From: an uncultured Gemmatimonadales bacterium
Lineage (GTDB): Bacteria; Gemmatimonadota; Gemmatimonadetes; Gemmatimonadales; GWC2-71-9
Direction of reading: 5' to 3'
DNA length: 64,000 bases
NCBI GenBank assembly: GCA_963695555.1
Contig: CAVOGR010000007.1
Span: 192,001-256,000, forward strand
The notes beneath the pieces were generated by a model. The model was not told the origin of the DNA. It made no database searches and saw only the letters and a list, made by a program, of their open reading frames with translations. How positions within the stretch are numbered: position 1 is the stretch's first letter; each line of letters opens with the position of its first letter. The translations under genes were made by a program, and so were the position numbers. Below are positions 46,260 to 64,000 of the stretch, piece after piece.

Positions 46260-47493
46260 GTGAGCGGCTTTGGGTTTCGCTGCACCGAGTGCGCCAAGGC
46301 GTATGGCGAGGACGACGTCCGGCTGGTGTGTCCCGCCTGCAAAGGGAAGCAGGAGCCCGGCGGCGTTACTCGGGGCGTGCTCGAGGTGGAGATCGATGAG
46401 CTGCCGACCAGTTGGCCCGATGCACCGCCCTCTCATCCCGATTTCCTGACCGCGTTTCTGCCCATCGAGTCGGCGGAGCATTTGCCGCCGCTCCCGGTGG
46501 GCGGCACACCGCTCCTGCCGGTGCCGGAACTGCGTCGCGCGCTCGAGATGCCGCGGCTTTGGCTGAAGGACGATACCCGAAACCCCAGCGGCTCGACCAA
46601 GGACCGGGCATCGCTCCTGGTGGTGGCCAAGGCGCGGCAGTACGGCTACGACACCGTGGCCGCCGCATCCACTGGGAACGCCGCGACCGCGCTCGCGGCC
46701 GTGTCGGCCGCCGCCGGTACACGAGCGATCCTGTTTCGTGCCGGCGGCGGCACCCGAGGCCAAGCTGGTGCAGATGCTGAGCTATGGCGCGACCGTGCTG
46801 CCCATCGACGGCAACTACGACGACGCGTTCGAGCTGTGCCTGGCCGCGTGCGAGGAGTTCGGCTGGTACAACCGGAACACCGCACTCAATCCGTTCACGA
46901 TCGAAGGAAAGAAGACCGCGGGGCTCGAGATCGCGTTGAGTATGGCGCCGGAGGTGCCGGACGCGGTGCTGGTGCCCACCGGCGACGGGGTCATCCTGGC
47001 CGGCGTGGCCAAGGGGTTCGCCGATCTGGTGCGTTCAGGGCTGATCGATCGCATGCCGCGGATGATCGCGGTCCAGCCCGAGGGCGCGGCGGCGATCGTC
47101 ACCGCCCTTAAGGAAGGCAGCGAGACCATCACGCCGGTGCCGGGTGCACACAGCGTGGCCGATTCACTGACTGTCGAGGCGCCGCGGAACGCGCTTCAGT
47201 GCCTCCGGGTCATTCGCGCCTCGGGCGGAAGCGGCGTCGCCGTACCCGACGCCGCTATCCTCGAGGCTATTCCCCGCCTAGCCGGCCTCAGCGGCGTCTT
47301 CGCCGAGCCGTCGGCGGCGGCGGGGTTGGCGGGGCTGGAGGTGGCGGTGGAGGAGGGCTTGGTGGAGCGGGGCGAGCGGGTGGTATTGTTGGTGACCGGC
47401 ACCGGGCTCAAGGACGTACCGGCGGCGGCCCGGGCGGTGGAGCGGCCGGCTACCATAGCACCGAGGTTGGAGGCGGTGGCGGGGCGGGTGTGA
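46260..47493 (+). CDS. Threonine synthase-like PLP enzyme (frameshift near 46735)
   Basis: CxxC..CxxC N-terminus, NPSGSTKDR, ASTGNAA, EGKKT, PTGDG, FAEP, TGTGLKD. Confidence 0.85.
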
Positions 47494-47715: not shown

Positions 47716-48462
47716 ATGGAGCAGCTGCAGGCACGCACGCAGCTTGTACGCATCCGTGCGGAACTGATTGCTGCCGACCTGGAGGCGCACGACACCGCGT
47801 TCCCGTCCCTTCGGTCAGTCGATGCACGTGTCCGCGAGGTCAAGCTCATTCTGAGCAGCATTGGTGCCACGCTGCTTCTAGATGAGATGGAGAAGGACGC
47901 CGACTTCGGCGCGAACAGCCGGCGCGTTAGACTCGAGGCGCTCGCAAACTACTGCGCGACAGCACTAACCTTCCTTGACGCTGGCGCTTTGGGCCGTAAG
48001 AGACAGCTGGTTCGGGGTCCCTCCTTTCACCGCTTGACCGTGGTTATGCCAGGCCTGGAGGAAGTTGTGCAAGAGCGCTGGCTCGAGGCCCAGCGGTGCC
48101 AGCATGCGAAGGCTTATCTTGCCGCTGTCATAATCATGGGTAGCATTCTTGAGGGCCTGCTCCTTGCGCGCGCGTCTCTCGATGCTCCTGCCGCTTTCCG
48201 AGCAGCAGCGGCCCCGCGGGCTCGCGACGGCAAGAACGTCGCCCTGCAGGACTGGAAGCTCTCGGCGCTGATCGATGTTGCTGTCGAGCTGCGTTGGCTC
48301 AAGAGTGACCGAGGTAGCTTCTCCCACGCGCTCCGGCAGTCACGCAACGTGTTACACCCATGGGAGCACGTATCCAATGCAGCAAATTTTGATGAGGCGA
48401 CCTGCGGAACGTGCTGGCACGTCCTGAACGCGGCTGTCCAGGACCTCCTCGTCTCTATTTAG
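47716..48462 (+). CDS. HEPN-like domain protein
   Basis: AYLAAVIIMGSILEGLL helix and LRQSRNVLHP motif; GAGGAG RBS. Confidence 0.6.
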   Translation: MEQLQARTQLVRIRAELIAADLEAHDTAFPSLRSVDARVREVKLILSSIGATLLLDEMEKDADFGANSRRVRLEALANYCATALTFLDAGALGRKRQLVRGPSFHRLTVVMPGLEEVVQERWLEAQRCQHAKAYLAAVIIMGSILEGLLLARASLDAPAAFRAAAAPRARDGKNVALQDWKLSALIDVAVELRWLKSDRGSFSHALRQSRNVLHPWEHVSNAANFDEATCGTCWHVLNAAVQDLLVSI

Positions 48463-48495
48463 CAGACTTTCACCCCGGAGCCACTAGCTGCGCGA

Positions 48496-49716
48496 ATGAC
48501 CGAGAACAAACCGGTATCGCTGCCGAGCGTTGCGCTCGTTCAAGCATCGGAAGTGCCATCGCTGCTAGAATGCATCCGCCCGTCGTGGCAGGCTAAGAAT
48601 CTCATCGGGCGCGTCAAGAAACTCATTGAGGTCGACCCCAGCAGTGCGTGCCAGCGCTTGTTCAACGCTGCCATTCACGACCTGAGGGAGAAGATCGTCG
48701 TTGCTGGCCTCGACATTGCGCGCGAGGCAGCGAAGCAAAATAAGCTCCCCCCGGTCGACCGGCCTGAGGATGTTGAGAATTACTCTACTGAGCGACTGAT
48801 CGAACTTGCCTATCGTGTCGGTTTGCTTACGCGTCCAGATTGGCGTCGGCTCTCACGCTGCTACGAGATTCGCCGGGACCTTGAGCACGAGGACGATGAG
48901 TATGAGGCGGGTGTAGAGGATTGCATCTATATCTTCAAGACCTGTATTGAAGTTGTTCTTTCTCGCGATCCGGTACACTTGATAAGAGTCGCCGATCTGC
49001 GCGATGTTGTCGAGCAGCCCACACCCGCCATTCTCGCTGACTCCCTTGTCGCGGATTTTGCCGCCGCACCGCAGCCCCGGCAGGATGAAATCGCGCGTTT
49101 TCTAATCAGCATTGCACTCGACAAGGATCAGTCTGAGATAGTTCAACAGAACGCCTTCAATGCGATTGCCCGCCTCGCTGCCCATACCCAGAACGCGGTC
49201 AAGCTCCAACTCGCTACACATTTCCAGGAGCGGATCGGCAAGAAGGGGTTGGATCGCCGCCATGCACGGGTTGCTTATGCGGCAGGTGTGCTACCCTACC
49301 TCAAGAAGGCTGATGTCGTTCAATGCTTCGAGGACGTGTACGCCCAAATGAAGAAAGTCGGGTCGCACTGGAGCGGCCACACTGAACATGGCGAGCTGCT
49401 TCGTTCGTTTCGAGAGTTGGGCGGCGTCGGCGCTGTGCCGGCGGAGTCACGAGCCAAGTTCCTAAAATGGATGGTGTTCACGTACTTAGGGGAACCTGGC
49501 GGCATGACATCGTACGGCAATGTACGGCATGTTTTCTACAGCAACACGGCGGCCCCGTTGATCACGACCCAGATCCGCGAGGCAGCCCACCTCATCGGCA
49601 GCGAACTCAAGAAGCTTAAAGCCGACAAGGATGTCGCTACGCTTTGCACCAACGCCCACATCGCTCGGCGGTTTGAGCTCCTCCTCGACAAAGTCGAGGG
49701 TCCAGATGTGGCCTAA
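48496..49716 (+). CDS. Hypothetical protein with HEPN-like N-terminal region
   Basis: SSACQRLFNAAIHDLREKI and RRDLEH (Rx4H); helical C-terminal region. Confidence 0.5.
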   Translation: MTENKPVSLPSVALVQASEVPSLLECIRPSWQAKNLIGRVKKLIEVDPSSACQRLFNAAIHDLREKIVVAGLDIAREAAKQNKLPPVDRPEDVENYSTERLIELAYRVGLLTRPDWRRLSRCYEIRRDLEHEDDEYEAGVEDCIYIFKTCIEVVLSRDPVHLIRVADLRDVVEQPTPAILADSLVADFAAAPQPRQDEIARFLISIALDKDQSEIVQQNAFNAIARLAAHTQNAVKLQLATHFQERIGKKGLDRRHARVAYAAGVLPYLKKADVVQCFEDVYAQMKKVGSHWSGHTEHGELLRSFRELGGVGAVPAESRAKFLKWMVFTYLGEPGGMTSYGNVRHVFYSNTAAPLITTQIREAAHLIGSELKKLKADKDVATLCTNAHIARRFELLLDKVEGPDVA

Positions 49717-49812
49717 CCGGGCGTGACCCTTCGGGCACGGATGTCCTTGGATCTCATTGCCTAGGGCCGAGGGTATGCCCCAGTCGTTAGACAGCTCCTG
49801 ACTTGAGGTAGC

Positions 49813-50514
49813 ATGGATCCTTGGATACCTGGGTCGACACCAGTCTCCGTTAAGCAAGCCCACTACCTTGACGGACTACGGTTCTGCTTTGAAGCCGCAA
49901 GTTTGGCCGGGCCTCGACTGGAAGAATCCCTCCTCAAGACAGCTAGAGCACTTGTACTGAAGGAGAGGAACTACCGAGTTCCCACTATCAATGCACTTAC
50001 AGATGCATGGCTCGTTGTTGATGCAGTGTTCCGTGCCCGAAGACTAATCTCGGGGCTTCCAGGCCTAAAGCATAAGAGATCTCCTGGCAGGACTGTCTTC
50101 TTGAAGAGAACGGCCGAAGTCGAGCCGCTGCGCAACACGATTCAGCACCTCGATACCGATATGAAAGATCTGACGGACGTAGAAGAACGGGCTTGGGGTA
50201 CTCTAGAGTGGTTTGCTTCTCTTCCAGAAACCGGGCACAAAGTTCATTCCCTGTTGCTGGTTCCTGGCTTTAAGGGCGGCGGTACATACCGACTCTGCAC
50301 AATCGCCAGAGCTCCACTTACGCAGCGCATCGACCAGATCATTTTGCGCTGTCGCAAGGCCCAGTTGAATATTTCAGATGCTGTTCTGGCAATGAACGAA
50401 CTGGATCAAGGTCTTCGCAAATCGCTCGGCACACCATATGCAGGTCCTCCAATCGATGAAAGAGACATGCTGTTCCACGCTGTCGCGCGCATCGACCCAG
50501 TTAATGATCGATGA
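49813..50514 (+). CDS. Hypothetical protein with HEPN-like motif
   Basis: LRNTIQH (Rx4H); GAGG RBS; visibly lower GC. Confidence 0.5.
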   Translation: MDPWIPGSTPVSVKQAHYLDGLRFCFEAASLAGPRLEESLLKTARALVLKERNYRVPTINALTDAWLVVDAVFRARRLISGLPGLKHKRSPGRTVFLKRTAEVEPLRNTIQHLDTDMKDLTDVEERAWGTLEWFASLPETGHKVHSLLLVPGFKGGGTYRLCTIARAPLTQRIDQIILRCRKAQLNISDAVLAMNELDQGLRKSLGTPYAGPPIDERDMLFHAVARIDPVNDR

Positions 50515-50580
50515 ATGATCTCCAACCAGCGCTGCTCAACGCCAGACCGCTTACTGCAAAACGCCGATCGCCTGGATTAG

Positions 50581-51693
50581 ATGCGCCTAATCACTGCGAA
50601 CTACCTCATCCCCCTCCTTGGCCTGGCCATGCTGCTGTCAGCATGTCGGCCTCCCGACAACAGTGCACTCCCTGGTACGATGTGGCAGGGCGACCCCCAA
50701 CCCACCCTAACCCTCACCAGCGACCGCCTCCCCGAGGGCCACGAGCTGAACGGGATCTACTCGGCGCTCGAGCTGCCGGACGGCTCGCTGCTCATCGCCA
50801 ACTCGGGCGCCCACGAATTGCTTCTGGTCGACTCCGTCGGCCAATACCTGCGCACCGTGGGCCGGAGCGGCCAGGGCCCCGGCGAGTACTCGGACAACCT
50901 GCAGCTCTTCCACGGTGCGGGCGACACGGTGGTGGTGTACGACGGCGGCGCCTTACGATGGACATACTTAACGCCTTCTTTCGAAGTGGCGCGAACGGTG
51001 GTCGAGTACAACGCCGACCTGCCAAGCCCGAGCTGGCTGTACCAGGGATCGCTGGTGACCGACACCAAGATCCGGCAGAACCGGGAGCGGGCCCGCGAGA
51101 TCCTCACATCCGTACGGTCGAGCGACCCGGGCTTCGGACGTCTGCTCATCGCGAGACAGGACGCCCAGGGTGCCGTCTGGGTGCGGCGGCTCGACGACGC
51201 CACCGAGTGGGAGGTGTACCCGGGCGGCGACACGACCTACGCCCGGGTCACCCTGCCACCGGGACTGGACCTCATCGCCATCGGAAGGCAGGCGGTCGTA
51301 GGCGTCACCCGCGACAGCCTGGGCGAGGAGCAGGTCCAGGTGCACCGCCTCGCCCGGCCGCCGGGCAGCACCAGCCCCGTAACCGTCGCGGAGGCGGAAG
51401 CCCCTGCCCCGGCGGCGGCGGTGCCGGCCGAGCGGCCACCGCTCGCTCGGGACCTGGTGAATCTGGTGACCGCGCAGGAGGCCTACTACTCGAACCACGC
51501 CAGCTATGCCGACGTGGCCGATAGCCTTCGGTTTCGAATCGAGGGAGGGGGCCGGCTCTTTATTCTCTACGCCGACGAGCGCCACTGGGCCGGTGTGGCG
51601 GTGATGCCAAGCACCGGACTGACCTGCGGCATGGCGGTAGGGTATCCGACGCCGGCCAGTTGGCAGGAGGGGGTGCCGGTCTGCGACAGGTAA
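50581..51693 (+). CDS. Lipoprotein, 6-bladed beta-propeller-like, fused to pilin-like C-terminal domain
   Basis: LLSAC lipobox; GRSGQGPGEY; C-terminal DLVNLVTAQEAYYSNHASYA and terminal Cys pair. Confidence 0.65.
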   Translation: MRLITANYLIPLLGLAMLLSACRPPDNSALPGTMWQGDPQPTLTLTSDRLPEGHELNGIYSALELPDGSLLIANSGAHELLLVDSVGQYLRTVGRSGQGPGEYSDNLQLFHGAGDTVVVYDGGALRWTYLTPSFEVARTVVEYNADLPSPSWLYQGSLVTDTKIRQNRERAREILTSVRSSDPGFGRLLIARQDAQGAVWVRRLDDATEWEVYPGGDTTYARVTLPPGLDLIAIGRQAVVGVTRDSLGEEQVQVHRLARPPGSTSPVTVAEAEAPAPAAAVPAERPPLARDLVNLVTAQEAYYSNHASYADVADSLRFRIEGGGRLFILYADERHWAGVAVMPSTGLTCGMAVGYPTPASWQEGVPVCDR

Positions 51694-53572: not shown

Positions 53573-54265
53573 ATGACCGACAAAGAACAACTCAAGTTCT
53601 GGCGCGAGCTGAGAAACCTCCGCGACCGCATCCAACAAGACCCCAGGCTGTACCGGAAGTTCCAGGAGAACCCAACCGAGATTTTCCAGCAGTTTGAGCT
53701 CGATGTGGAGGTACCCGCGGGCCCATTGGGGAAAGAGGGCCGCCGGCTATCCGACTACCTTGACGCGCTCCGCCCGGAAGAACGACCGATCGTCGCGGAG
53801 TCGTTGCTCGAGTTGAGCGTCGCGGATGATATCGGGAAAGTCGCGATCGCACTCGCACTCGCGAATGCAGTCGCCCTGGCCAATGCAGCCGCCAACGCCA
53901 ATGCAGCCGCCAACGCCAACGCAGGGGCCAACGCAAACGCCGGGGCAAACGCCAACACCAATACGAATACGAGTGGGGTGGGGATTGGAGATCTGGTGGC
54001 AAATCCGTGGGCACGCATGGTCCTGGCCTCTGATTTCGCCGAGTCTGCGCTGGCCCGCACGCTGGCCGACCTACACTTGAATCCGGCCCGCCAGAGCGCG
54101 TTGCTCAGGCGTGTGCTGACCGATGACGAGAGTGTTCTGAGTTCCAAGGTGGTCGGCGATGCGGAGTTCCGACTCGCACAGTACTCCTTCCGCGGTACGG
54201 TATTCCAGGTTGAGGGGTTGCTTCGAGGTGACGTGATCGAGGTCGTCAACACCCGGCTCATGTAG
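53573..54265 (+). CDS. RiPP precursor 1: NHLP-like leader, internal Ala/Asn core, C-terminal follower domain (230 aa)
   Basis: GGGAGG RBS; RIQQDPRLYRKFQENPTEIFQQFELDV leader-like segment; core VAIALALANAVALANAAANANAAANANAGANANAGANANTNTNT; directly upstream of maturases. Confidence 0.8.
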   Translation: MTDKEQLKFWRELRNLRDRIQQDPRLYRKFQENPTEIFQQFELDVEVPAGPLGKEGRRLSDYLDALRPEERPIVAESLLELSVADDIGKVAIALALANAVALANAAANANAAANANAGANANAGANANTNTNTSGVGIGDLVANPWARMVLASDFAESALARTLADLHLNPARQSALLRRVLTDDESVLSSKVVGDAEFRLAQYSFRGTVFQVEGLLRGDVIEVVNTRLM

Positions 54266-54300
54266 CGGAGTCGACCACACTCCGAGATGCAAGAACCGCG

Positions 54301-56262
54301 ATGGCATCCGCGCGGGAGAATCGGTCGTTTATGGGATCTGGACGGGGTAATCTGCTGCTGCTCCACATGCCGATGGCTGCGCCGAACCTGCCGAATCTGG
54401 CCATCGAGCAGCTCGCGCAGATTCTTCGCCGTGCCGGATTCCGGTGCGACGTCTCCTACCCGAACCTGCGGCTTCCCCGCTCCGTCAGCGCCCGACTCGT
54501 CCACGGCCTTCCCGGACCCGCGATCTTCGCACCCCACCGGTTCCGCATTCCTGCAGAGCAGGTGGCGGACGCGGTGGCCGCAGAGCTCAACCGCATTGCC
54601 CAGGCCGCCGGACTGTCTCGGCCAGATACTTACGACGACACCGCCACCGAGTACCTCCTGGGCATCGAAGCGGCAGGGCAGTGTCTGGACGGCACGTTGG
54701 CCGCGATTCCCGTGGGTAGCTACGACGCCATCGGCTTCTCAGTGATCTTCGATGCCCAGAAGCTGCCCTCTTGCGCCTTAGCGCATCGCCTGAAACAGCG
54801 TGAGCCTCGGATTCGGGTGCTTTTCGGCGGGACAGGTTGCGACGGGGAAATGGGCGCGGCATTGCTCGAACACTTCCCAGAGGTCGACGCGGTGCTTCAA
54901 GGCGAGGCCGATAGGACCGTTGTAGCTGCGTTCGATGCCCTGTTGGACGGTGAACTGGAAACCGTGCCCGGGCTTCTGTATCGTGATGGCGACGAGATCC
55001 TGCGTTCTTCCGTACCCGAGGATGAGCCGCCGCTTATCGGGGACGTGGTGCCAGACTATGCCACCTTCGTCGAGCAACGATCCGCCAGCGCATATCGTGA
55101 CGAACCCCTCGTTCTCTTCTACGAGGCGTCACGTGGCTGCTGGTACGGTCGCAAACAGCATTGCAACTTCTGCGGAATCAAGAACGTCGACGGGGCATAC
55201 CGAGAGAAGGCGCCGGACGCACTCCTCCAAGAGATGCTCTCGCTGTCGAAGCGCTACGATCCGGAAACCCTATACGCGACCGATGCAATCCTGAGCCGAC
55301 AGCATATCAGCACGGTGCTCGCGGACATAGCTACGATGCGCCAGGTCGGATTGAGGCTGCCTGCCTTGTTTTTTGAAACCAAATCGAACCTGAAACCCGA
55401 AGAGATCGGACTTCTCGCCGCTGCCGGCACCAAACAAATGCAACCGGGAATCGAGAGTTTTAGCACCAACACCCTGCGTTTGATGCGCAAGGGTGCAACC
55501 ATGTTACAGCAACTCTCTTGTCTCAAGTGGTCCCGTGCGTACGGCGTCGAGTTGGTATACAGTATTCTCACCGGTACCCCCGGAGAGTCCGATGCCGACC
55601 GCGACGCCATGGCCGCGCTAATGGAGCATCTGCACCACCTGCCACCACCATATCAGACCAATCGACTCGGGCTACACCGTTTCAGCCCATACTTCAAGGA
55701 CTCAGCTGCGTTCGGGATCACCGACGTTCGTCCGTTTGCGCTGCAGAAGACCATCTATCAGACCGAGAACGTCGACCTGTTGTGCCGACTCTGCTATGAG
55801 CTGGAGTACAGCCTTGAGCCTGAAGTGGTACCGATCGGACCAGGAAGCATGGAACGTCTGTCCGAGGCGGTCAGGCGATGGCGTGAAGCGTACTTTGCCG
55901 GCTGTAGGATGGTGGTCCGACCACTCGCCGGAGGTGCCATAGTGATCCGAGCCATCGCCGATCAGGGTCCAAGGATCGACCGATATGAAGGAGTGGACGC
56001 AACCGTGCTCCTCGAAGCGGGGACGGTCGTTGGGATCGGGACGTTGGCCCGCCGCATTGGTGTGCCGGAGGCCGAGGTCGACGCGGCGGCCACGAGGCTC
56101 GAATCGCTCCACCTTCTCGTCAGGGAGGAGCGCAACCTTCTGGCACTGCCGGTGCCCCCGGCAGAGCCATGGAGGCCGCGATCCCCTCGAGCCACCCGCG
56201 ATGTTGACGCCCCCGCCCAACCCGAGGTGCTCGTTCAGGCGCGGGCCGACGCGCCGTGCTAG
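54301..56262 (+). CDS. B12-dependent radical SAM C-methyltransferase, RiPP maturation type (PoyB/PoyC-like)
   Basis: MPMAAPNLPNLAI, FGG..C.GEMG, GEAD, EASRGCWYGRKQHCNFCG (Cx7Cx2C), QPGIES, LMRKG, RFSPYF. Confidence 0.9.
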   Translation: MASARENRSFMGSGRGNLLLLHMPMAAPNLPNLAIEQLAQILRRAGFRCDVSYPNLRLPRSVSARLVHGLPGPAIFAPHRFRIPAEQVADAVAAELNRIAQAAGLSRPDTYDDTATEYLLGIEAAGQCLDGTLAAIPVGSYDAIGFSVIFDAQKLPSCALAHRLKQREPRIRVLFGGTGCDGEMGAALLEHFPEVDAVLQGEADRTVVAAFDALLDGELETVPGLLYRDGDEILRSSVPEDEPPLIGDVVPDYATFVEQRSASAYRDEPLVLFYEASRGCWYGRKQHCNFCGIKNVDGAYREKAPDALLQEMLSLSKRYDPETLYATDAILSRQHISTVLADIATMRQVGLRLPALFFETKSNLKPEEIGLLAAAGTKQMQPGIESFSTNTLRLMRKGATMLQQLSCLKWSRAYGVELVYSILTGTPGESDADRDAMAALMEHLHHLPPPYQTNRLGLHRFSPYFKDSAAFGITDVRPFALQKTIYQTENVDLLCRLCYELEYSLEPEVVPIGPGSMERLSEAVRRWREAYFAGCRMVVRPLAGGAIVIRAIADQGPRIDRYEGVDATVLLEAGTVVGIGTLARRIGVPEAEVDAAATRLESLHLLVREERNLLALPVPPAEPWRPRSPRATRDVDAPAQPEVLVQARADAPC

Positions 56263-57361
56263 TCCTCCGTCCGCGACAGCTCACGGTGCTCGCCACCAGC
56301 AACTGCACAGCTACGTGCAGCCACTGCTCGATGCAATCCGCGCCGGGACGTCGGGAGTACCTGACGTTCGCTCAAATGCGCCAAGCAATCGACGAGCTGC
56401 ATACGCTGAGTCCGCTTCGCGTTGTGATCTTCGCCGGCGGCGAACCTACACTCCTCGGCGAGGCACTGCTCGATGCGATCGCGTACGCCGATGGGCTCGG
56501 CATCCTGACCCGCTTGGTTACGAACGCGTATTGGGCCACCAATCCGGCGCGCGCGCGCGCACGCCTCATAGCGTTTCGGGAAGCGGGCCTTCGTGAACTC
56601 AACTTGAGTGCGGACGACCAACATCTTCCCTTCGTGCCATTCGAGCGAATCGAATATGCTTGGCATGCCAGCAAGGGCCTGGGGTTTCAGGCGGTCATCA
56701 TCGCCAACTGCTCAGGCCCGCGGAGCCGCGTCACCCCGTCCTACATCGAAGACCGTCTTGGGGAATCCTTGGTAAGACGATTCGATGAGGATGGATCACC
56801 GCTTCCCCTCGCTGCCCCGGCACCGGATGGCACCGTGTACGGCCTGTCCAACGCGCTATTTGCAGCGACTGGGCCGCGGCAAAGACTTACCGGATCAGGA
56901 TTTGATCTTCCCCGACACAGAAGAGGCGCTGAACACCCCGTGCCCCTGGGCCGTGCGTAGTGCAGCATTGTCCCCCTCCAATCACCTCGTCGCCTGCTGC
57001 GGTATCGAGGCCGAGGGAAATCCCGTACTCGACTTCGGTTCGGCCTCGGAGATGTCGGTCACAACGCTCGTAAACCGAGCGGACAATAGCCTCCTCGTCA
57101 ATGCAATCGCCCTGCTTGGACCCGTCTATCTGAAGCGATTTCTGACGGAGCGCGCGCCGGAGATCGCGTGGCGGCCTCGCTACAGTAGTGTGTGTGAAGT
57201 GTGTGAGCATCTGGTCACTCGTCCAGAGGTCACTTGGTGCCCTCCGCTCTCACTCGGCCGAACTTGCCCTTCAACTCCTACCCGTGCGCGACGCACTGGA
57301 GGAGGTCGCTCCCGCGGATGCGGAAACCTCAGATGCTTATCACCTCACAGGCACCTACTGA
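56256..57361 (+). CDS. Radical SAM enzyme, putative peptide epimerase (PoyD-like); frameshifts near 56855 and 57235
   Basis: CTATCSHC, FAGGEP, VTNAYWA, LSADDQH; C-terminal CPW..ACCG..CEVC in the next frame. Confidence 0.75.
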
Positions 57362-58429
57362 ACTCGAAGGCGGCTCCCTAGGCCGGCTGGGCGACGAACT
57401 GCAGCACACTGGCTATGCTGAGTTCTGCTCCACGTTCTTCCCGCTTGCACCACGGCTGGAACACTGGATCGAACATCGGGACGACGCACCCCAGGAGCTG
57501 CGAAGCCTGGTCGATCTCTTTCTCCTGGCGCAGCCAACGAGCTATGACGACTTGCCACGCGGACTACGCGCGGTCGTGGAAGCGCTTGTGGAAATCGGGA
57601 TTCTGGTTGACAGAACGGATGGGATGGTCAGTACGCCTGGCCTGGTCGCTGCTGCCCGTGTTCGGCTACTGGCTCTTTTTCCAGAAACCAACCCGGAATC
57701 CAGCACTCTACTTCGGCGATGACTCCGTAGCCCTGGCCTGCCGCATCCGCCCACGCCACGGGGGGAGCACGCTGGACCTGTGCGCCGGTCCTGGCATTCA
57801 GTCCCTGGTGGCAAGCGGCATCAGCGGTTCAGTGACGGCCGTGGAAATCAACCCAGCCGCGGCCGAGATCGCGAAATTGAACGTCATGATTAACCGTCGC
57901 GACGATCGGATTTCAGTACTCACCGGGGACTTGTATGAACCCCTCTCACCTGACCTGCGGTACGATCACGTAGTAGCAAATCCACCCCTCTTACCCGTGC
58001 CAAGGAACATGCAGTATCCCTTTGTCGGCGACGGGGGACCGGACGGCCTCACCGTGACGCGACGTATCCTCTCCGGACTGCCAACTAGGCTCCACCCGGC
58101 CGGCACCGCGCAGATAATCGGTACCTGTCTCAGCGATGGGATCTTGCCGTTCGCTGCCGACGAGATGGCCGAATGGACCCGTAGAACGGATATGGACCTT
58201 CGGATGACTGTGGCCGCGCACGTCCCGCTTTCCCCTGGTACCCCGATGTTTCAAGGGCTGGTCGAGACGGCTGGCGGACCGGATTTGGCGGAATCCTTCG
58301 CGTCGTTTCTTGCTGCGCGAGCGCGCCGGGTACTTGGCAACCTTCTTTCTGCATGTGAGGTGGGGTCAGGGACGTTTCACGGTACAAGACATGTCCAGGG
58401 ACGGACATGCCGGACTCTGGTTCGTCTGA
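57318..58429 (+). CDS. SAM-dependent N-methyltransferase (PoyE-like Asn side-chain methyltransferase candidate); frameshifts near 57647 and 58322
   Basis: YFGDDS, LDLCAGPGIQ, VEIN, GDLYEP, VANPP, GGPDGL; GGAGGAGG RBS. Confidence 0.78.
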
Positions 58430-58480
58430 CATGGCCGGGGCAGCGTGCCCCGCGCGAACGAGCAATGGGAGAGGATCATC

Positions 58481-60045
58481 ATGGCTGACGTGACGGATGG
58501 AGCGGAAGGACGTGGCGCACCTCGAATCAAGCGTGACAATTTCGTCGCGAGAATCGTGACCGACCCAGAGCGCCCGGTCGGCGCACTTGTGGTTGGCGGG
58601 TACATCGGTGACGCAGCCGAAGACTCAGCGCTGCGCATCTACTTCGACGCTTCGCTGACCAGCTTTCTGGATATCGAGAAGCAAGACGTTCTTGCTTTCA
58701 AGGAGGTGCCCGAACGCGTCGATCCCCTGGGATCTACAATTCTGTGGCTCGCGCGTGACGCCAGTGTGAAGTACGGCCTGACCGAGCCAAAGCCTGGTCT
58801 TGGTGCTGCAGTGACAGCCACTGTATCGGAGCCACCACCTCCACCTCCGCCGACGGTGACACTCCCTCTGACCCCCACCTTGACAAATTATGGGGGGACC
58901 TGGGGCCCGACTCGGTCCCAGCCCAGCTGGCCGACGCACCCGACGGTGCCCGCCGCCGACCTGGCCCACGGCAACCCACCGTGCCCACGCGGACGACGAC
59001 GCCGCCGACCATGTCGCAACCGAGCTGGCCCACCCAACCGACGGCCACCCCGCCGACCTGGCCCACGGAACCCACCGTGCCCACGCGGACGATGACGCCG
59101 CCGACCATGTCGCAGCCCAGCTGGCCCACCCAGCCCACGGCCTCACCCCCGACCTGGCCTACGGCACCGACGATGACCCCGCCGACCATGTCGCAGCCCA
59201 GCTGGCCCACCCAGCCCACGGCCTCACCCCCGACCTGGCCTACGGCACCGACGATGACCCCGCCCACCATGTCGCAACCCAGCTGGCCCACCCAGCCCAC
59301 GGCCTCACCCCCGACCTGGCCCACGGCACCGACGATGACCCCGCCGACCATGTCGCAGCCCAGCTGGCCTACCCAGCCCACGGCCTCACCGCCGACCTGG
59401 CCCACGGCACCGACGATGACCCCGCCCACCATGTCGCAGCCCAGCTGGCCTACCCAGCCCACGGCCTCACCCCCGACCTGGCCCACGGCACCGACGATGA
59501 CCCCGCCGACCATGTCGCAGCCCAGCTGGCCTACCCAGCCCACGGCCTCGCCGCCGACCTGGCCCACGGCACCGACGATGACCCCGCCGACCATGTCGCA
59601 GCCCAGCTGGCCTACCCAGCCCACGGCCTCGCCGCCGACCTGGCCCACGGCACCGACGATGACCCCGCCCACCATGTCGCAGCCCAGCTGGCCTACCCAG
59701 CCCACGGCCTCACCGCCGACCTGGCCCACGGCGCCGACGATGACCCCGCCCACCATGTCGCAGCCCAGCTGGCCCACCCAGCCCACGGCCTCACCGCCGA
59801 CCATGTCGCAACCCAGTTGGCCCACGGAACCCACCGTGCCCACCCGCACGATGACGCCGCCCACGATGTCGCAACCCAGCTGGCCGACGCAACCGACGGC
59901 CACGCCGCCCACGATGTCACAACCCAGCTGGCCCACCCAACCAACGGCCACACCGCCCACGATGACCCCGCCGACCATGTCGCAACCGACGGTCACAATC
60001 ATCCCTACGGGCCCGGGGCATTGGGGATGGGGATGGCAGTGGTGA
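58481..60045 (+). CDS. RiPP-like precursor 2: globular N-terminal domain plus long Thr/Ser/Pro repeat region (~520 aa after correcting two apparent insertions at ~58950-58975)
   Basis: GGAGAGGA RBS; DNFVARIVTDP..GYIG..RIYFD..WLARDA domain; repeat text starts in frame 58445 and continues in ORF 58981..60045. Confidence 0.75.
59101..59800 (+). repeat. 81-bp coding tandem repeat, 8 full units plus a partial unit, with degenerate flanking units (58910-59990)
   Basis: Unit starts at 59101, 59182, 59263 etc.; encodes TMSQPSWPTQPTASPPTWPTAPTMTPP. Confidence 0.95.
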
Positions 60046-60111
60046 TTTGCTCTGCGGCTGAACAAGCTACCGCCGAGGCACCCATGTATCGCGCCTGAGA
60101 GGGAGAGGTTA

Positions 60112-61282
60112 TTGCACTTCAGTTGCCCGGGACTTGTTCAATACCTTCTCGAGACGGGCTGGCTCACAAGAGCCAGCCTAGTCCGGGCTATGCTCGAGAT
60201 CGTTCCCGTTGGACGACGCAATCGAAATTTCCGCGTGATGATCGGAAAGTCGGGGGGCCTTTTCGTTAAGCAGATTCAACGCGACGAGGTCTGCTGCGTG
60301 GCACACTGTGCGGCGTGAAGCACTCTTCTATCGTGAAGTGGCAGCACGGGAGCCACTGAAGGAAATGCGCCCGCTTGTGCCCCGCTTCTTGGGATGGGAT
60401 GCCGAACGAAGTACGGTCATCACCGAACTTGTCGAAGAGGCACAGACACTCCTCGCCGTCTCAGGGCAACCAGGGCAACATCGTTTTGCGATGATTGGCC
60501 GCACATTGGCTGCGGTCCACGGTTCGCGGGATGCGCTGAGCCGAGAGCAATCCTTGCACCAAGAGCTTGAGAATCGGGTACCTTGGATCCTGGACCTTGC
60601 GATGAATCCCTCCGCATTCATCCGAATTGGTGGGGGCGACATGATTACGTTCCTGGCGCTCCTGGAGGAGTATCCAGCCTTATTGAAGTGGCTAGGCCAC
60701 GCGCGGTCCGCGTGGGTTTGCGATGCCTTTATTCATGGCGACCTGCGCTGGGACAACATTCTCCTCGTCTCGAAGAACGGCTATTCCTCAAGGGTGGTTT
60801 TCGCGGATTGGGAACTATACGATCTTGGGGACTCTGCCTGGGATATCGCGACCATCATCAGAGATGCTTTGTTGATCGAGTTCTTTCAGCCAGGCTCCCT
60901 TCGGGCCCGCGGCCCCGCGATCCCGGCGCTGCTGGCAGCCTATCTCGATTGCCGGCCGGCACTGCGGCCAGACTTTGGCCAGTGGCGCTCTCGGGTAGTC
61001 ATCTACGCTGTCACTCAGTTGTGTCTTGCTGCGTTCGAGCAGCTCGCCGCTCGCGTCCGTGCTGGCAATGAGGTGCGGGCTTTAGTGGGTTGGGCGGATC
61101 AGCTTGGTCGTTCGACTGAGAGCGCTCGACTGGGTCTTCCCGGATGTCCGAGTCCCTTAGTCGCGCGGCTATCCGCCAGGCGATCACGTGGGTCCTCCGG
61201 GATCTACGGTTGTATCCCGCTGCCTTCATGCTGCGGGGCCGAGCCTACCCGTTGCCCCCCCAGCCAGGAGATCATTTACTAG
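60112..61282 (+). CDS. APH-family phosphotransferase (class V lanthipeptide-type kinase); frameshift near 60300, true end possibly near 61150
   Basis: RRNRNFRV..LFVKQ, RREALFY, IHGDLRWDNIL, DWE..GD.AWDIA. Confidence 0.82.
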
Positions 61283-62142
61283 CGCTCCGCGCGGCCCTTC
61301 AGCAAGTACTGTACGAGGTCTGTTACACCCGCCTATTGTCTGACTCCACATTCGACCAGTGGCGACCCAGTACCACGTCGGATGCCGACAATGGGTTCAC
61401 CGAAGTGTTGGCTCAGGCTGTCGGAGGGGCCCCGCGCTGGGAAGGGGGGTGGCGCGCAGCGAGCTCACCTGGGCCCGAAGGCATTTGGCTCACGAAACGT
61501 GAAACCTGTCGATGGGCCCAGACAGGCCACTACCTTCCAAGTTCGGAGGCCGGCCTCGATGGATACATTTGGCTTCTGATTCACCGTGAATGGCGGCACC
61601 CACTGCCCGGCTTCTACTTCATCAATGGAAGGACTCCAGGCGACGAGTGGGACGAGGCGCACCCGGCACGTTTCTACCTTCATACGCGCGCATCAACGGC
61701 AGTTGCCGTGAGCGAAATAGTCGTGAAGTTGCTGGACACCTACGAGGTCCCGTTCCGTTTCAAGACGCTGAACGTGGCATCCATGTACGATCGAGCCGAC
61801 GCTAGCGTGCTCTACGTTGGAACACAGCACGCTGCCGTCGTCGAGCGGCTTTTGCGGTATGCTTTCGCGAACGGGTCAAGCCGATGGCTGGACGAATCAG
61901 TCCCACTATTTACCATGTGCATCATTCCTGGGGTTGGGTTCGCCGTGGACCCGGGTACGGGAGAAAGCTTCGGTACAGACAGATGCAGGATCCTCGCCGA
62001 AGGAATCCTTGACGCTTGGCAAACCGGCGATACATCCGTCGATGGACGCTGGAGCGCAGTGGAAGCCAGATTCGCTGCCGTGGGTGTCGATTTGGATCAC
62101 GCATATCTCGGCGTTGATCAGGCCTCGTGGTTCGAATGCTAA
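61144..62142 (+). CDS. HopA1-like protein (class V lanthipeptide-type phospho-lyase)
   Basis: PGFYF, RFYLH, PFRFK, RADASVLYV, PLFT, GESFGTDRCRILAEG. Confidence 0.82.
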   Translation: MSESLSRAAIRQAITWVLRDLRLYPAAFMLRGRAYPLPPQPGDHLLALRAALQQVLYEVCYTRLLSDSTFDQWRPSTTSDADNGFTEVLAQAVGGAPRWEGGWRAASSPGPEGIWLTKRETCRWAQTGHYLPSSEAGLDGYIWLLIHREWRHPLPGFYFINGRTPGDEWDEAHPARFYLHTRASTAVAVSEIVVKLLDTYEVPFRFKTLNVASMYDRADASVLYVGTQHAAVVERLLRYAFANGSSRWLDESVPLFTMCIIPGVGFAVDPGTGESFGTDRCRILAEGILDAWQTGDTSVDGRWSAVEARFAAVGVDLDHAYLGVDQASWFEC

Positions 62143-62930
62143 GAGGCGCTCTGTCCCCGGCAGCGTCTCTGGAGGTGGCCACCCGCATCGGGCGGCGGCT
62201 GTGCCGGGATGCCATCTGGGACCACGATTGCTGTACTTGGCTCGGGTGGCAACCCCCGAACGAGAGCGCGGACATGGTCCCCGTCTACGGCGCGTGTGGA
62301 GGTGGATTCTATGATGGAACCGCCGGCATCGGCTGCTTCCTGCAGCATTTGAGTCAAGCGAGCCCGGATCCGCTTGTCCGTCTCACAGCGGACGGCGCTG
62401 TCCGTCAGGCCATCGGGATCGATACCGCGGCCATCCCAATATTTCCAGGTTCTCGCAGGCCTCAGGGCTCTCACCGGACAACTGTCGTTGACGCTCTTGC
62501 TGTCCTCCGTTGGAGTCTGAAAGAGACCGAGTCAGTTGGCGAGGGGGGAATCTGCAACGAGGAGATTCGCCACGCTGCTCAGTTGCTCATAGACCACCTC
62601 GGCTTCAGCCTTCAGCAGAGTTGGCTCCCGGCTTCGATGTTCGATGGGTGGTGTGGCGTCGCCGATGCGCTGCTCCTGTATGAGTGCCACAATCCAAACG
62701 CCGGTGCTAAATCCGTTGTCGAAGCAGTAGCAGCAAAGGCATACACGGTCCACGAACAATGGGGAATTCCCTGGCCCTGCGGCGGACCTGGAGGCGCCGA
62801 GACCCCCGACCTCTTACACGGCCTCGCCGGAATCGGGTGGTGCTATCTACGACTTGCCGATCCGCTGGCCGTGCCTTCGCCGTTTGCCCTGGTGGCCGGG
62901 AGGGAGAACGCGCCTGAAGGAGATAAATAG
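62127..62930 (+). CDS. Short LanC-like protein lacking CHG zinc motifs
   Basis: IGRRLCRDAIW..CTW, YDGTAGIG, WPCG..ETPDLLHGLAGIG..YLRL. Confidence 0.72.
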   Translation: MVRMLRGALSPAASLEVATRIGRRLCRDAIWDHDCCTWLGWQPPNESADMVPVYGACGGGFYDGTAGIGCFLQHLSQASPDPLVRLTADGAVRQAIGIDTAAIPIFPGSRRPQGSHRTTVVDALAVLRWSLKETESVGEGGICNEEIRHAAQLLIDHLGFSLQQSWLPASMFDGWCGVADALLLYECHNPNAGAKSVVEAVAAKAYTVHEQWGIPWPCGGPGGAETPDLLHGLAGIGWCYLRLADPLAVPSPFALVAGRENAPEGDK

Positions 62931-63256
62931 TGATTAGACTGCTGACTTTCGCACTTCCCGCGCTCTTTGTGCTGGCGGGCATTCCGCTTCGTCTCGGATG
63001 GGTTCCGCCTAACCGCTGGTACGGCTATCGGACGGCGCTCACGTTTCGCAATCCGGACGTATGGTACTCGGTGAACCGGGAGCTGGGTGTTGCCATGCTG
63101 GTCGCCGGTGTGCTGGGCCTCGCGGTTGGAGTGGCTCTGCTTCGACTCGCCCCGACCTGGCGCGGAGAGACCAGGCTTCTCGTGAGCATCATCAGCCAGA
63201 GTCTCCTGCTGTTTGCGGCGCTGTTGATTGTGGTGCTCAGAACTCAGCGTATATGA
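62930..63256 (+). CDS. SdpI family immunity protein
   Basis: VPPNRWYGYRT..W..NR signature; three TM helices. Confidence 0.85.
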   Translation: MIRLLTFALPALFVLAGIPLRLGWVPPNRWYGYRTALTFRNPDVWYSVNRELGVAMLVAGVLGLAVGVALLRLAPTWRGETRLLVSIISQSLLLFAALLIVVLRTQRI

Positions 63257-63263
63257 CAGGCGA

Positions 63264-64000
63264 TCACGGCGCCGCGACGTCCAGAATCCATCGCCCCAGT
63301 TCGGTCGTCACAGTGGCAGAGATCCGCCGCCGCCGGTCACCGTATGAGGCAAACCCGGAGGAATTGGTTACATGCCGCAGCAGATGGTCATGGTGAGGGA
63401 GCAATATCAAACGGCCTTTCAGGCCTGCGGCGCGGGCCGCGCGAAGAAGCAGGTGTGCATCCGCGACGGTTACCTGCAGGTCCGCCTTGCCTTGCAGGAT
63501 GAGGACAGGGCACCGGACAGCACCCAGCAGGTGCAAGGGATCGCGAACGTCGAGGCTTCGGTACCAGCGCCGAAGGTGCCGGAGCAGCACCAGCCCAGCC
63601 GGGACCCGGCCGGAAGTCCAACGAGGTGATCGCCGAGCGTGATAAAACAACTCCCGTACCTCCGCCTGTCTATGAGCAAGCCATTCCGAACCCAAACGAA
63701 GCTTGCGGGCCTGTATCGCAACCTGCTCCAGCAAAACAGACTCAATCGGACGACCCGCAGTGGCCAGCAGGGCCAAGCCGGCTACATTCCGATTTCTGCC
63801 GGCGACTTCCATTGCAAGCAGCCCCCCTTCACTGTGTCCGATCAAGAACGTAGGAACGCCCTGCACTTCCTGCCGCGAGCGAAGAACTGCAAACGCTGCA
63901 CGGGCCCGTGCCAACAACGATTCAAATCGTGGTTCCTCTGCAACCTCGAGCGTCTTCTCATATCGAAGGGTAGCGATACCCGCAGGCGCGAGTCGATTCG
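63264..64000 (-). CDS. Alpha/beta hydrolase (5' end probably outside the window)
   Basis: GHSEG nucleophile elbow, ILQGKADLQV, HDH; upstream frame reads like RYEKT.. Confidence 0.82.
   Translation of the reverse strand, partial: NRLAPAGIATLRYEKTLEVAEEPRFESLLARARAAFAVLRSRQEVQGVPTFLIGHSEGGLLAMEVAGRNRNVAGLALLATAGRPIESVLLEQVAIQARKLRLGSEWLAHRQAEVRELFYHARRSPRWTSGRVPAGLVLLRHLRRWYRSLDVRDPLHLLGAVRCPVLILQGKADLQVTVADAHLLLRAARAAGLKGRLILLPHHDHLLRHVTNSSGFASYGDRRRRISATVTTELGRWILDVAAP

Follow-up and report, generated by a model that had tools for sequence, protein, structure and literature searches.

We analyzed a 64,000-nucleotide (nt) stretch of DNA from an uncultured Gemmatimonadales bacterium (GenBank assembly GCA_963695555.1, contig CAVOGR010000007.1, forward-strand positions 192,001 to 256,000; hereafter, the window) and focused on a candidate precursor gene located at 58481..60045 on the forward strand. 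The gene encodes an N-terminal domain (N-domain) followed by a long tail of Thr/Ser/Pro/Trp repeats, and the genes of an APH-type kinase (LanK), a HopA1-type lyase (LanY), and a shortened LanC-like protein follow it. A preliminary description of this DNA had proposed that the repeat protein is the probable substrate of the kinase/lyase pair.

The Shine-Dalgarno-like sequence GGGAGAGG, read from the DNA at 58467..58474 (+), lies 6 nt 5' of an ATG at 58481. This ATG starts a frame (coordinate modulo 3 = 2) that codes for the N-domain and then for a Pro-rich linker. Residues 1-100 (58481..58780, +) constitute a leader-like domain, recognized through its phmmer family and an AlphaFold2 prediction of a six-strand beta-barrel. 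The Pro/Thr-rich linker behind it (..AVTATVSEPPPPPPPTVTLPLTPTLTNYGGTWGPTR; 58781..58914, +) is common to the closest relative, P0001, whose alignment runs to residue ~140. The repeat array occupies 58915..59988 (+), and its coding frame is modulo 3 = 1 from ~58978. Within the array, the 27-residue unit TMSQPSWPTQPTASPPTWPTAPTMTPP occurs exactly eight times without a change in the peptide (59104..59751, +). A non-repeat C-terminal end, TVTIIPTGPGHWGWGWQW, and a stop codon, both read from the translation of the open reading frame (ORF), close the gene at 59989..60045 (+). This C-terminus is rich in Trp (..GPGHWGWGWQW), and so is that of a relative at locus L020 described below (..GTMGWPYPW).

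Tandem Repeats Finder reported an 81-nt unit in 8.8 copies (97% matches, score 1297) at 59088-59802, flanked by related unit types of 96, 63, and 48 nt. The array is open in all three forward frames and in one reverse frame, and an open frame is therefore uninformative by itself. The Thr/Ser/Pro/Trp reading corresponds to the ORF at 58981-60045 (modulo 3 = 1), which contains 14 SQPSWPT motifs. The first eight full units vary in eight DNA columns, every one of them a third codon position in this frame, and their peptides are identical; at nine more variable columns, the ninth unit alone differs, where the array switches unit type. The G+C content at the three codon positions was 0.48, 0.85, and 0.91 between 59100 and 59800. 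Judged from the synonymous-only variation, the modulo 3 = 1 frame is the selected one.

When the N-domain, the junction, and the repeats are read through as three pieces, the protein comprises 520 residues, with 135 Pro, 113 Thr, 44 Ser, 30 Trp, and no Cys; the 420 residues beyond residue 100 contain 148 Ser and Thr. The preliminary description had reported a domain of ~100 amino acids (aa) followed by repeats, eight identical 27-mers, a Cys-free reconstructed protein, synonymous third-position differences in support of the repeat frame, more than 100 Ser/Thr, and APH and HopA1-like genes immediately downstream. The results bear out each of these points, with a repeat part of about 375 aa and with the Ser/Thr figure standing as a count. 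We found no further copy of the repeat elsewhere in this genome and no stem-loop between the precursor and LanK genes (z = +1.65).

The N-domain family and its gene neighborhood

We searched for relatives exhaustively by using phmmer with a 106-aa N-domain query against 1.84 billion cluster representatives. At E<=1e-3, the search revealed 989 representatives, of which 141 also passed E<=1e-10, and the best 150 of the 989 matches were used for position and tail statistics. In 146 of these 150 proteins, which are 80-1200 aa long, the match begins no later than residue 37. The invariant family residues D28, G40, G43, R52, and Y54 are all present in the window N-domain.

The tails behind the domain are hypervariable. 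Among the best 150 matches, the tail reaches 60 aa or more in 137; 121 of these tails contain at least 6% Cys, 8 contain two or fewer Cys, and 5 contain none, and a tail free of Cys is thus rare in the family. Ordinary family tails have 8-13% Cys, the median ratio of Ser+Thr to Cys in Cys-rich tails is 1.44, and visible repetition was noted in 41 of the 116 tails of at least 100 aa. A Cys-rich tail is thus a typical but not universal trait of the family, and the window tail, with no Cys, lacks it. The Ser+Thr content of the window tail (~35%) compares with a maximum of 22% across the best 150 tails. Four members (P0132, P0122, P0078, and P0073) reach 792-1200 residues and have tails with up to 104 Cys and long repeats, such as GCPQTSTCTPQT(L/K/R)M(L/I). 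To our knowledge, proteins of this length far exceed any known lanthipeptide precursor in size.

The AlphaFold2 prediction, based on a 34-sequence alignment, was a small beta-barrel of six strands with a mean predicted local distance difference test score (pLDDT) of 84.4, and residues 40-100 scored above 90. Residues 1-140 had no Pfam or NCBIfam match, and the N-domain profile matched no PDB sequence. For the predicted structure, the best Foldseek hit had an E value of 0.11, and the best VIA-align hit had a Z score of 3.7, to generic small Hfq/Sm/SH3-type barrels. In the ESM Atlas, the domain matched unnamed clusters alone. No close relatives were found in metagenome contigs by using a single-protein query or a two-sequence alignment, and none were found among the longer proteins of a 90%-cluster collection, the latter being weak evidence because the same search missed P0001. 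No description of the precursor family was found in the literature searched, in which subscription journals were poorly covered. On sequence grounds, the N-domain family appears to be a large, apparently undescribed precursor family with hypervariable, mostly Cys-rich tails.

We retrieved 13 loci from species-representative genomes by using a narrower N-domain alignment. They belong to Bryobacteraceae and other Acidobacteriota, Verrucomicrobiia, Alphaproteobacteria, and Myxococcaceae. In all 12 informative loci, co-oriented genes encoding an APH-type kinase, a HopA1-type lyase, and a full-length LanC come after the N-domain gene in this order; in the 13th locus, the contig ends 51 bases past the N-domain match. 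The window keeps this order of precursor, LanK, LanY, and LanC. The preliminary description had called for a homolog search with a tabulation of neighbors and tails, and it had staked the substrate proposal on N-domain homologs being linked to APH/HopA1 genes. The search found that linkage in 12 of the 13 loci, the 13th running off its contig, and found mostly Cys-rich tails. Because the conserved order matches the class Vb lanthipeptide gene set, the synteny supports a substrate relation between the repeat protein and the kinase/lyase pair. The 13 loci hold 14 precursors, one of the loci (L016:9566-12118) having two tandem N-domain genes (400 and 380 aa; tails with 32 and 28 Cys) ahead of one LanK-LanY-LanC set. 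The tails of 13 of the 14 precursors contain 4-40 Cys.

The remaining precursor, at L020 in a metagenome-assembled genome (MAG) of Myxococcaceae, contains no tail Cys. Its gene (L020:4645-5265) is a single intact ORF of 206 codons on a short-read contig. The tail of 102 aa includes 35 Ser+Thr and 33 Pro, has PTWPT, PPTWPT, and LPSWPV motifs, and ends in a Trp-rich segment. The operon (L020:4645-8634) is likewise intact and comprises the precursor, LanK, LanY, and a full-length LanC with zinc-ligand motifs. Thus, a Cys-free Thr/Pro/Trp tail occurs in an unbroken gene ahead of LanK-LanY-LanC. A search of 200 further genomes from the order of this MAG did not find the L020 protein. Shared ancestry of the two Cys-free tails was considered and is not supported: the N-domain tree pairs the window protein with P0001 (support 100/95) and leaves L020 on a long unresolved branch. 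A composition-corrected BLASTP comparison of the window and L020 tails yielded a weak match (E 0.021, 18/34 identical).

Window enzymes and the surrounding operon

The LanK-type kinase with an APH fold is encoded at 60112..61153 (+), with residues 1-57 at 60112-60282 and residues 65-362 at 60305-61144 in another frame. A tblastn comparison with a family LanK produced a match over residues 3-362 in the two frames (E 3e-34), and the kinase motifs RRNRNF, FVKQ, HGDLRWDN, and DWELYDLGD, including those of the catalytic loop, are preserved. No match to the window kinase was found among PDB sequences. The LanY-type phospho-Ser/Thr lyase of the HopA1 family is intact (61144..62142, +; PF17914, 105.8 bits against a cut-off of 22.7). 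None of the columns invariant across five family LanY proteins is altered in it, and it matches the lexapeptide lyase LxmY (chain 9dk1_B) over the HopA1 core with an E value of 6.1e-7.

The third gene (62127..62930, +) encodes a LanC relic of 267 aa, compared with 409-428 aa in relatives. The relic is alignable at its first ~95 and last ~110 residues alone, and ~145-170 residues of the middle are gone, and with them the GFSHG and WCHG motifs; SMFDG stands in place of SLCHG. Its Pfam LANC_like score (21.3 bits) lies under the cut-off of 23.2. Other frames at this position contain no additional LanC-like segments, and the next gene starts at 62930; therefore, the loss of LanC looks real rather than an artefact of the frame. 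The window thus has the stand-alone LanK (PF01636) beside the precursor and the stand-alone LanY (PF17914) that characterize class Vb; it has neither a functional LanC with Cys/Cys/His zinc ligands nor a core with both Cys and Ser/Thr. The dehydration enzymes are conserved and the Cys-requiring LanC is gutted, beside a Cys-free substrate.

The precursor is the fifth gene of a nine-gene same-strand run (53573-63256) with overlaps or short gaps. The run begins with gene X (53573-54265, +), which encodes a 230-aa protein with an (Ala-Asn)n block and a C-terminal DUF5969 (PF19394). Three enzyme genes follow: a B12 radical-SAM C-methyltransferase intact at full model length (54301-56262, +), a YydG-like radical-SAM enzyme with a frame break (56256-57381, +), and a HemK-like methyltransferase, also with a frame break (57234-58488, +), the ORF end of which overlaps the precursor ATG. 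The last gene of the run encodes a membrane protein of the SdpI/YfhL family (62930..63256, +; PF13630, E 2e-12). No dedicated protease was seen in the operon; an alpha/beta-hydrolase gene (63264-63998) lies on the opposite strand.

Gene X has 17 homologs of 213-279 aa with DUF5969, and all nine aligned members, including that of the window, carry the conserved block ANANAxANANAGANANAxANANTNTNG. No paper naming DUF5969 was found. Gene X could be a poly-(Ala-Asn) substrate of a proteusin-like module, and it is a more obvious substrate for the three upstream enzymes than the precursor is. Among the flanking ORFs scanned in the 12 syntenic loci, no radical-SAM or methyltransferase genes of this sort were found, and the upstream and LanK/LanY modules were therefore treated as separate but co-transcribed. 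Further upstream, four consecutive ORFs of 233-406 aa (47716-51693, +) have no Pfam match and lie in the lowest-G+C patch of the window (0.58).

Frame breaks and the quality of the assembly

The N-domain and the repeats lie in different frames of the assembled sequence. The first unit of the 96-nt type begins at 58915 and has 98 nt, compared with 96 nt in the next copy, and two single-base frame breaks (modulo 3 from 2 to 0 to 1; 58952..58978, +) separate the two parts of the gene. Reading from frame 2 through 0 to 1 over ~58952-58978 regains the unit consensus (..THPTVP / PPTWPTAT / TVPTRT..). The two apparent insertions mentioned in the preliminary description are therefore present in the assembly as one-base breaks at the domain/repeat junction. 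The final ~47 residues of the ORF as assembled are out of frame, rich in Arg, and include 3 Cys.

Three neighboring genes are also broken, namely those encoding the YydG-like radical-SAM enzyme (56256-56960 and 56785-57381), the HemK-like methyltransferase (57234-57722 and 57415-58488), and the LanK kinase. A PALP-enzyme gene elsewhere in the window (46260-47493) is likewise split over two frames. The assembly (3.57 Mb, 14 contigs) is 87% complete, and rpoB and rpoC are intact in it. To control for errors, we examined 400 kb of a same-genus genome (G002) and its 218 ORFs of 250 aa or longer, for 189 of which the MAG contains an orthologue-like match. The results revealed that 29 of these 189 genes are split across at least two frames in the MAG. 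DNA alignment of the high-identity split genes located 41 frame-breaking indels, 33 of them single-base (14 insertions and 27 deletions among the 41). The indels are mostly not in homopolymers and are locally clustered, with up to 9 in a 2.5-kb gene. The indel error rate of the assembly is thus at least 1 per 7 kb of conserved coding sequence.

The initial preference for real pseudogenization, based on the intact rpoB and rpoC, was overturned by the 189-gene comparison and the indel survey. Because they resemble the single-nucleotide indels seen genome-wide in conserved genes, the two breaks in the precursor are most likely assembly errors, and the organism therefore probably makes the full 520-aa protein. 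Frameshifts and pseudogene calls in this MAG should not be taken as biology unless reads back them.

Interpretation and comparison with known systems

We consider it reasonably probable that the gene encodes a LanA-like precursor of a kinase/lyase/cyclase system of the class Vb kind, in which the Cys-free tail and the LanC relic mark a pathway that halts before ring closure. By analogy with the family gene order and the published class V enzymology, residues ~15-100 would fold as a small beta-barrel and act as the recognition ("leader") domain to which the enzymes would bind. The adjacent LanK would phosphorylate Ser and Thr of the tail, and LanY would eliminate the phosphate to leave dehydroalanine or dehydrobutyrine. 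In ordinary Cys-rich members, LanC would then close many thioether rings. Because the window tail is Cys-free and its LanC relic is without zinc ligands, the pathway should halt at dehydration, or at phosphorylation. It would yield a linear polypeptide, rich in Pro and studded with Trp, with many dehydro residues (or phosphates alone), or fragments of it.

A more far-reaching version of this proposal is possible, although we regard it as doubtful. In that version, a class V-type kinase/lyase pair freed from ring formation, its substrate stripped of all Cys and its cyclase of the zinc site, would convert the 520-residue protein into a linear polymer with up to ~150 dehydrobutyrine/dehydroalanine residues, or into one short dehydrated peptide in 14 copies, and the N-domain would mark hundreds of undescribed "lanthi-proteins" of 200-1200 residues with up to ~100 Cys that are made by LanK/LanY/LanC in Gram-negative soil phyla.

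Several observations weigh against a functional precursor whose processing stops before ring closure. As assembled, the ORF from 58481 comprises 204 aa and stops at 59095. The segment of ~56.9-60.3 kb (~3.5 kb) holds five or more frame breaks, a density above the genome mean, and local decay at the precursor locus may therefore be real. The window kinase scores below threshold for both Pfam APH (22.3 bits against a cut-off of 23.2) and NCBIfam LxmK (54 bits against 315). The best N-domain relative, P0001 (E 2e-33, 63% identity), has a different, hydrophobic tail, and a search of proteins of 194-620 aa with the repeat region itself found nothing at E<=1e-5. The L020 LanC retains its ligands despite a Cys-free tail, and Cys loss and LanC loss are thus not always paired; LanC in L020 may serve some different role.

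The distribution of the genes weighs in the same direction. The N-domain profile was found in none of 400 other genomes sampled from the phylum of the window, and a single-protein query found none in 60 relatives, save one borderline match (E 0.006). For gene X, 300 other genomes from the phylum gave no match. Because gene X, like the N-domain, was not found in the other genomes sampled, the whole island is probably foreign to its lineage, and the four ORFs at 47716-51693 probably belong to the same island. The island has a G+C content of 0.58-0.63, below that of the rest of the window. The family is patchy elsewhere as well: of 150 other genomes sampled in the order to which one Bryobacterales host belongs, it was found in 3.

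These observations bear on the strongest alternative, which we consider unlikely: that a horizontally acquired class Vb-type cluster is being lost, its cyclase gutted and its original Cys-rich tail replaced by runaway tandem repeat expansion, with real breaks in the precursor, kinase, radical-SAM, and methyltransferase genes and nothing made. The density of breaks, set against ~1 per 7 kb in conserved genes, the LanC shortened by ~145-170 residues with its ligands gone, the absence of the island from the sampled genomes, and its low G+C content would all fit such decay. However, LanK and LanY retain all the family-invariant motifs, the gene of the B12 radical-SAM enzyme is unbroken and spans the full model length, and the repeat units differ synonymously alone. 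The single-base breaks also match, in kind and in clustering, those seen in the conserved housekeeping genes of this assembly, and L020 provides an unbroken relative whose tail is of the same type.

A hybrid pathway appears still less probable. In such a pathway, the tail would also or mainly be a substrate of the upstream radical-SAM and methyltransferase enzymes, acting for example on its 29 Gln or on Thr/Pro/Trp carbons, or the kinase and lyase would also serve the (Ala-Asn)n protein. The close, co-oriented packing of the nine genes, including the overlap at the precursor ATG, is consistent with this idea, as is the assignment of the B12 enzyme to TIGR03975, a family of C-methyltransferases that mature peptides made by ribosomes and modified after translation (RiPPs; 421 bits against a cut-off of 282). 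Nevertheless, such genes were not found among the flanking ORFs scanned in any of the 12 syntenic loci, L020 has LanK, LanY, and LanC alone with the same tail type, and gene X, directly before those enzymes, offers them the more obvious substrate. Finally, an ordinary Pro/Thr-rich structural or linker protein that lies beside the kinase and lyase incidentally is highly improbable: Pro/Thr-rich low-complexity tails are common in GC-rich genomes and the tail has no family-model match, but the N-domain is tied to LanK-LanY-LanC in 12 of 12 informative loci, and no hydrophobic N-terminal stretch was apparent when the translation was read by eye (no signal-peptide predictor was run).

The favored precursor reading places the gene close to class Vb systems, which are defined by LanK (PF01636), LanY (PF17914), and LanC (PMC12291118). 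In the class Vb example of mSmoA, made by SmoK/SmoY/SmoC (PMC12291118 and PMC12328550), the same three separate genes follow the precursor directly in the same kinase-lyase-LanC order. The class Vb leader described there is short, whereas the N-domain family has a predicted folded domain of ~95 residues and tails of up to ~1,070 residues. The class Vb hosts described there are Streptomyces, whereas the N-domain hosts are Acidobacteriota, Verrucomicrobiota, Pseudomonadota, Myxococcota, and the phylum of the window; a 2025 review likewise reports class V systems in actinobacteria alone (PMC12328550). One published mining of class V precursors, according to PMC9486802, considered only ORFs of fewer than 110 residues with Cys and Ser/Thr; on that account, the N-domain family would have been missed by design. 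The window system differs further from class Vb in its Cys-free tail and its LanC without ligands, and therefore no lanthionine is possible within the protein.

In class Va, the pairs CaoK/CaoY of cacaoidin (PMC9486802) and LxmK/LxmY of lexapeptide (PDB 9dk1) likewise consist of a kinase and a lyase, which iteratively dehydrate Ser and Thr as a complex. For CaoK/CaoY, this chemistry has been reconstituted, with dehydration of CaoA through phosphorylation followed by elimination (PMC9486802). In contrast to class Va, no LanD or LanX gene was present among the window ORFs scanned. Because core Cys and LanC zinc ligands are both missing, the system should not be filed as a lanthipeptide system; in its working, by analogy, it would resemble class V lanthipeptide dehydration.

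Linaridins and thioamitides are RiPPs that retain dehydrobutyrine or dehydroalanine; they are short peptides with other class-defining modifications, and thioamitides employ an APH/HopA1 pair. Dehydrated Ser/Thr as an end product, as in these compounds, is likewise proposed for the window protein. However, no YcaO/TfuA or linaridin genes were found among the window ORFs scanned. A conserved leader of ~80-100 residues with a hypervariable core is also known from the NHLP and Nif11 families of proteusins and prochlorosins, which the N-domain family resembles in its long conserved leader and highly diverse tails. The N-domain matches neither model, and its predicted fold is a beta-barrel, whereas NHLP and Nif11 leaders are helical; the leader homology expected of a proteusin-type precursor is thus absent.

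To date, descriptions of class V lanthipeptide chemistry concern short peptides; the N-domain connects this chemistry with long precursor proteins that form a large family spread over several other phyla. The window member and its intact L020 relative suggest a branch in which dehydration is not followed by ring closure within the protein. The L020 locus, being intact, is a better place for testing the dehydration idea than the error-prone assembly of the window. If true, the proposed pathway would open a way, through ribosomal synthesis, to very long segments with a high content of dehydro-amino acids, and it would offer a natural case for studying LanK/LanY substrate recognition and the extent of processing.

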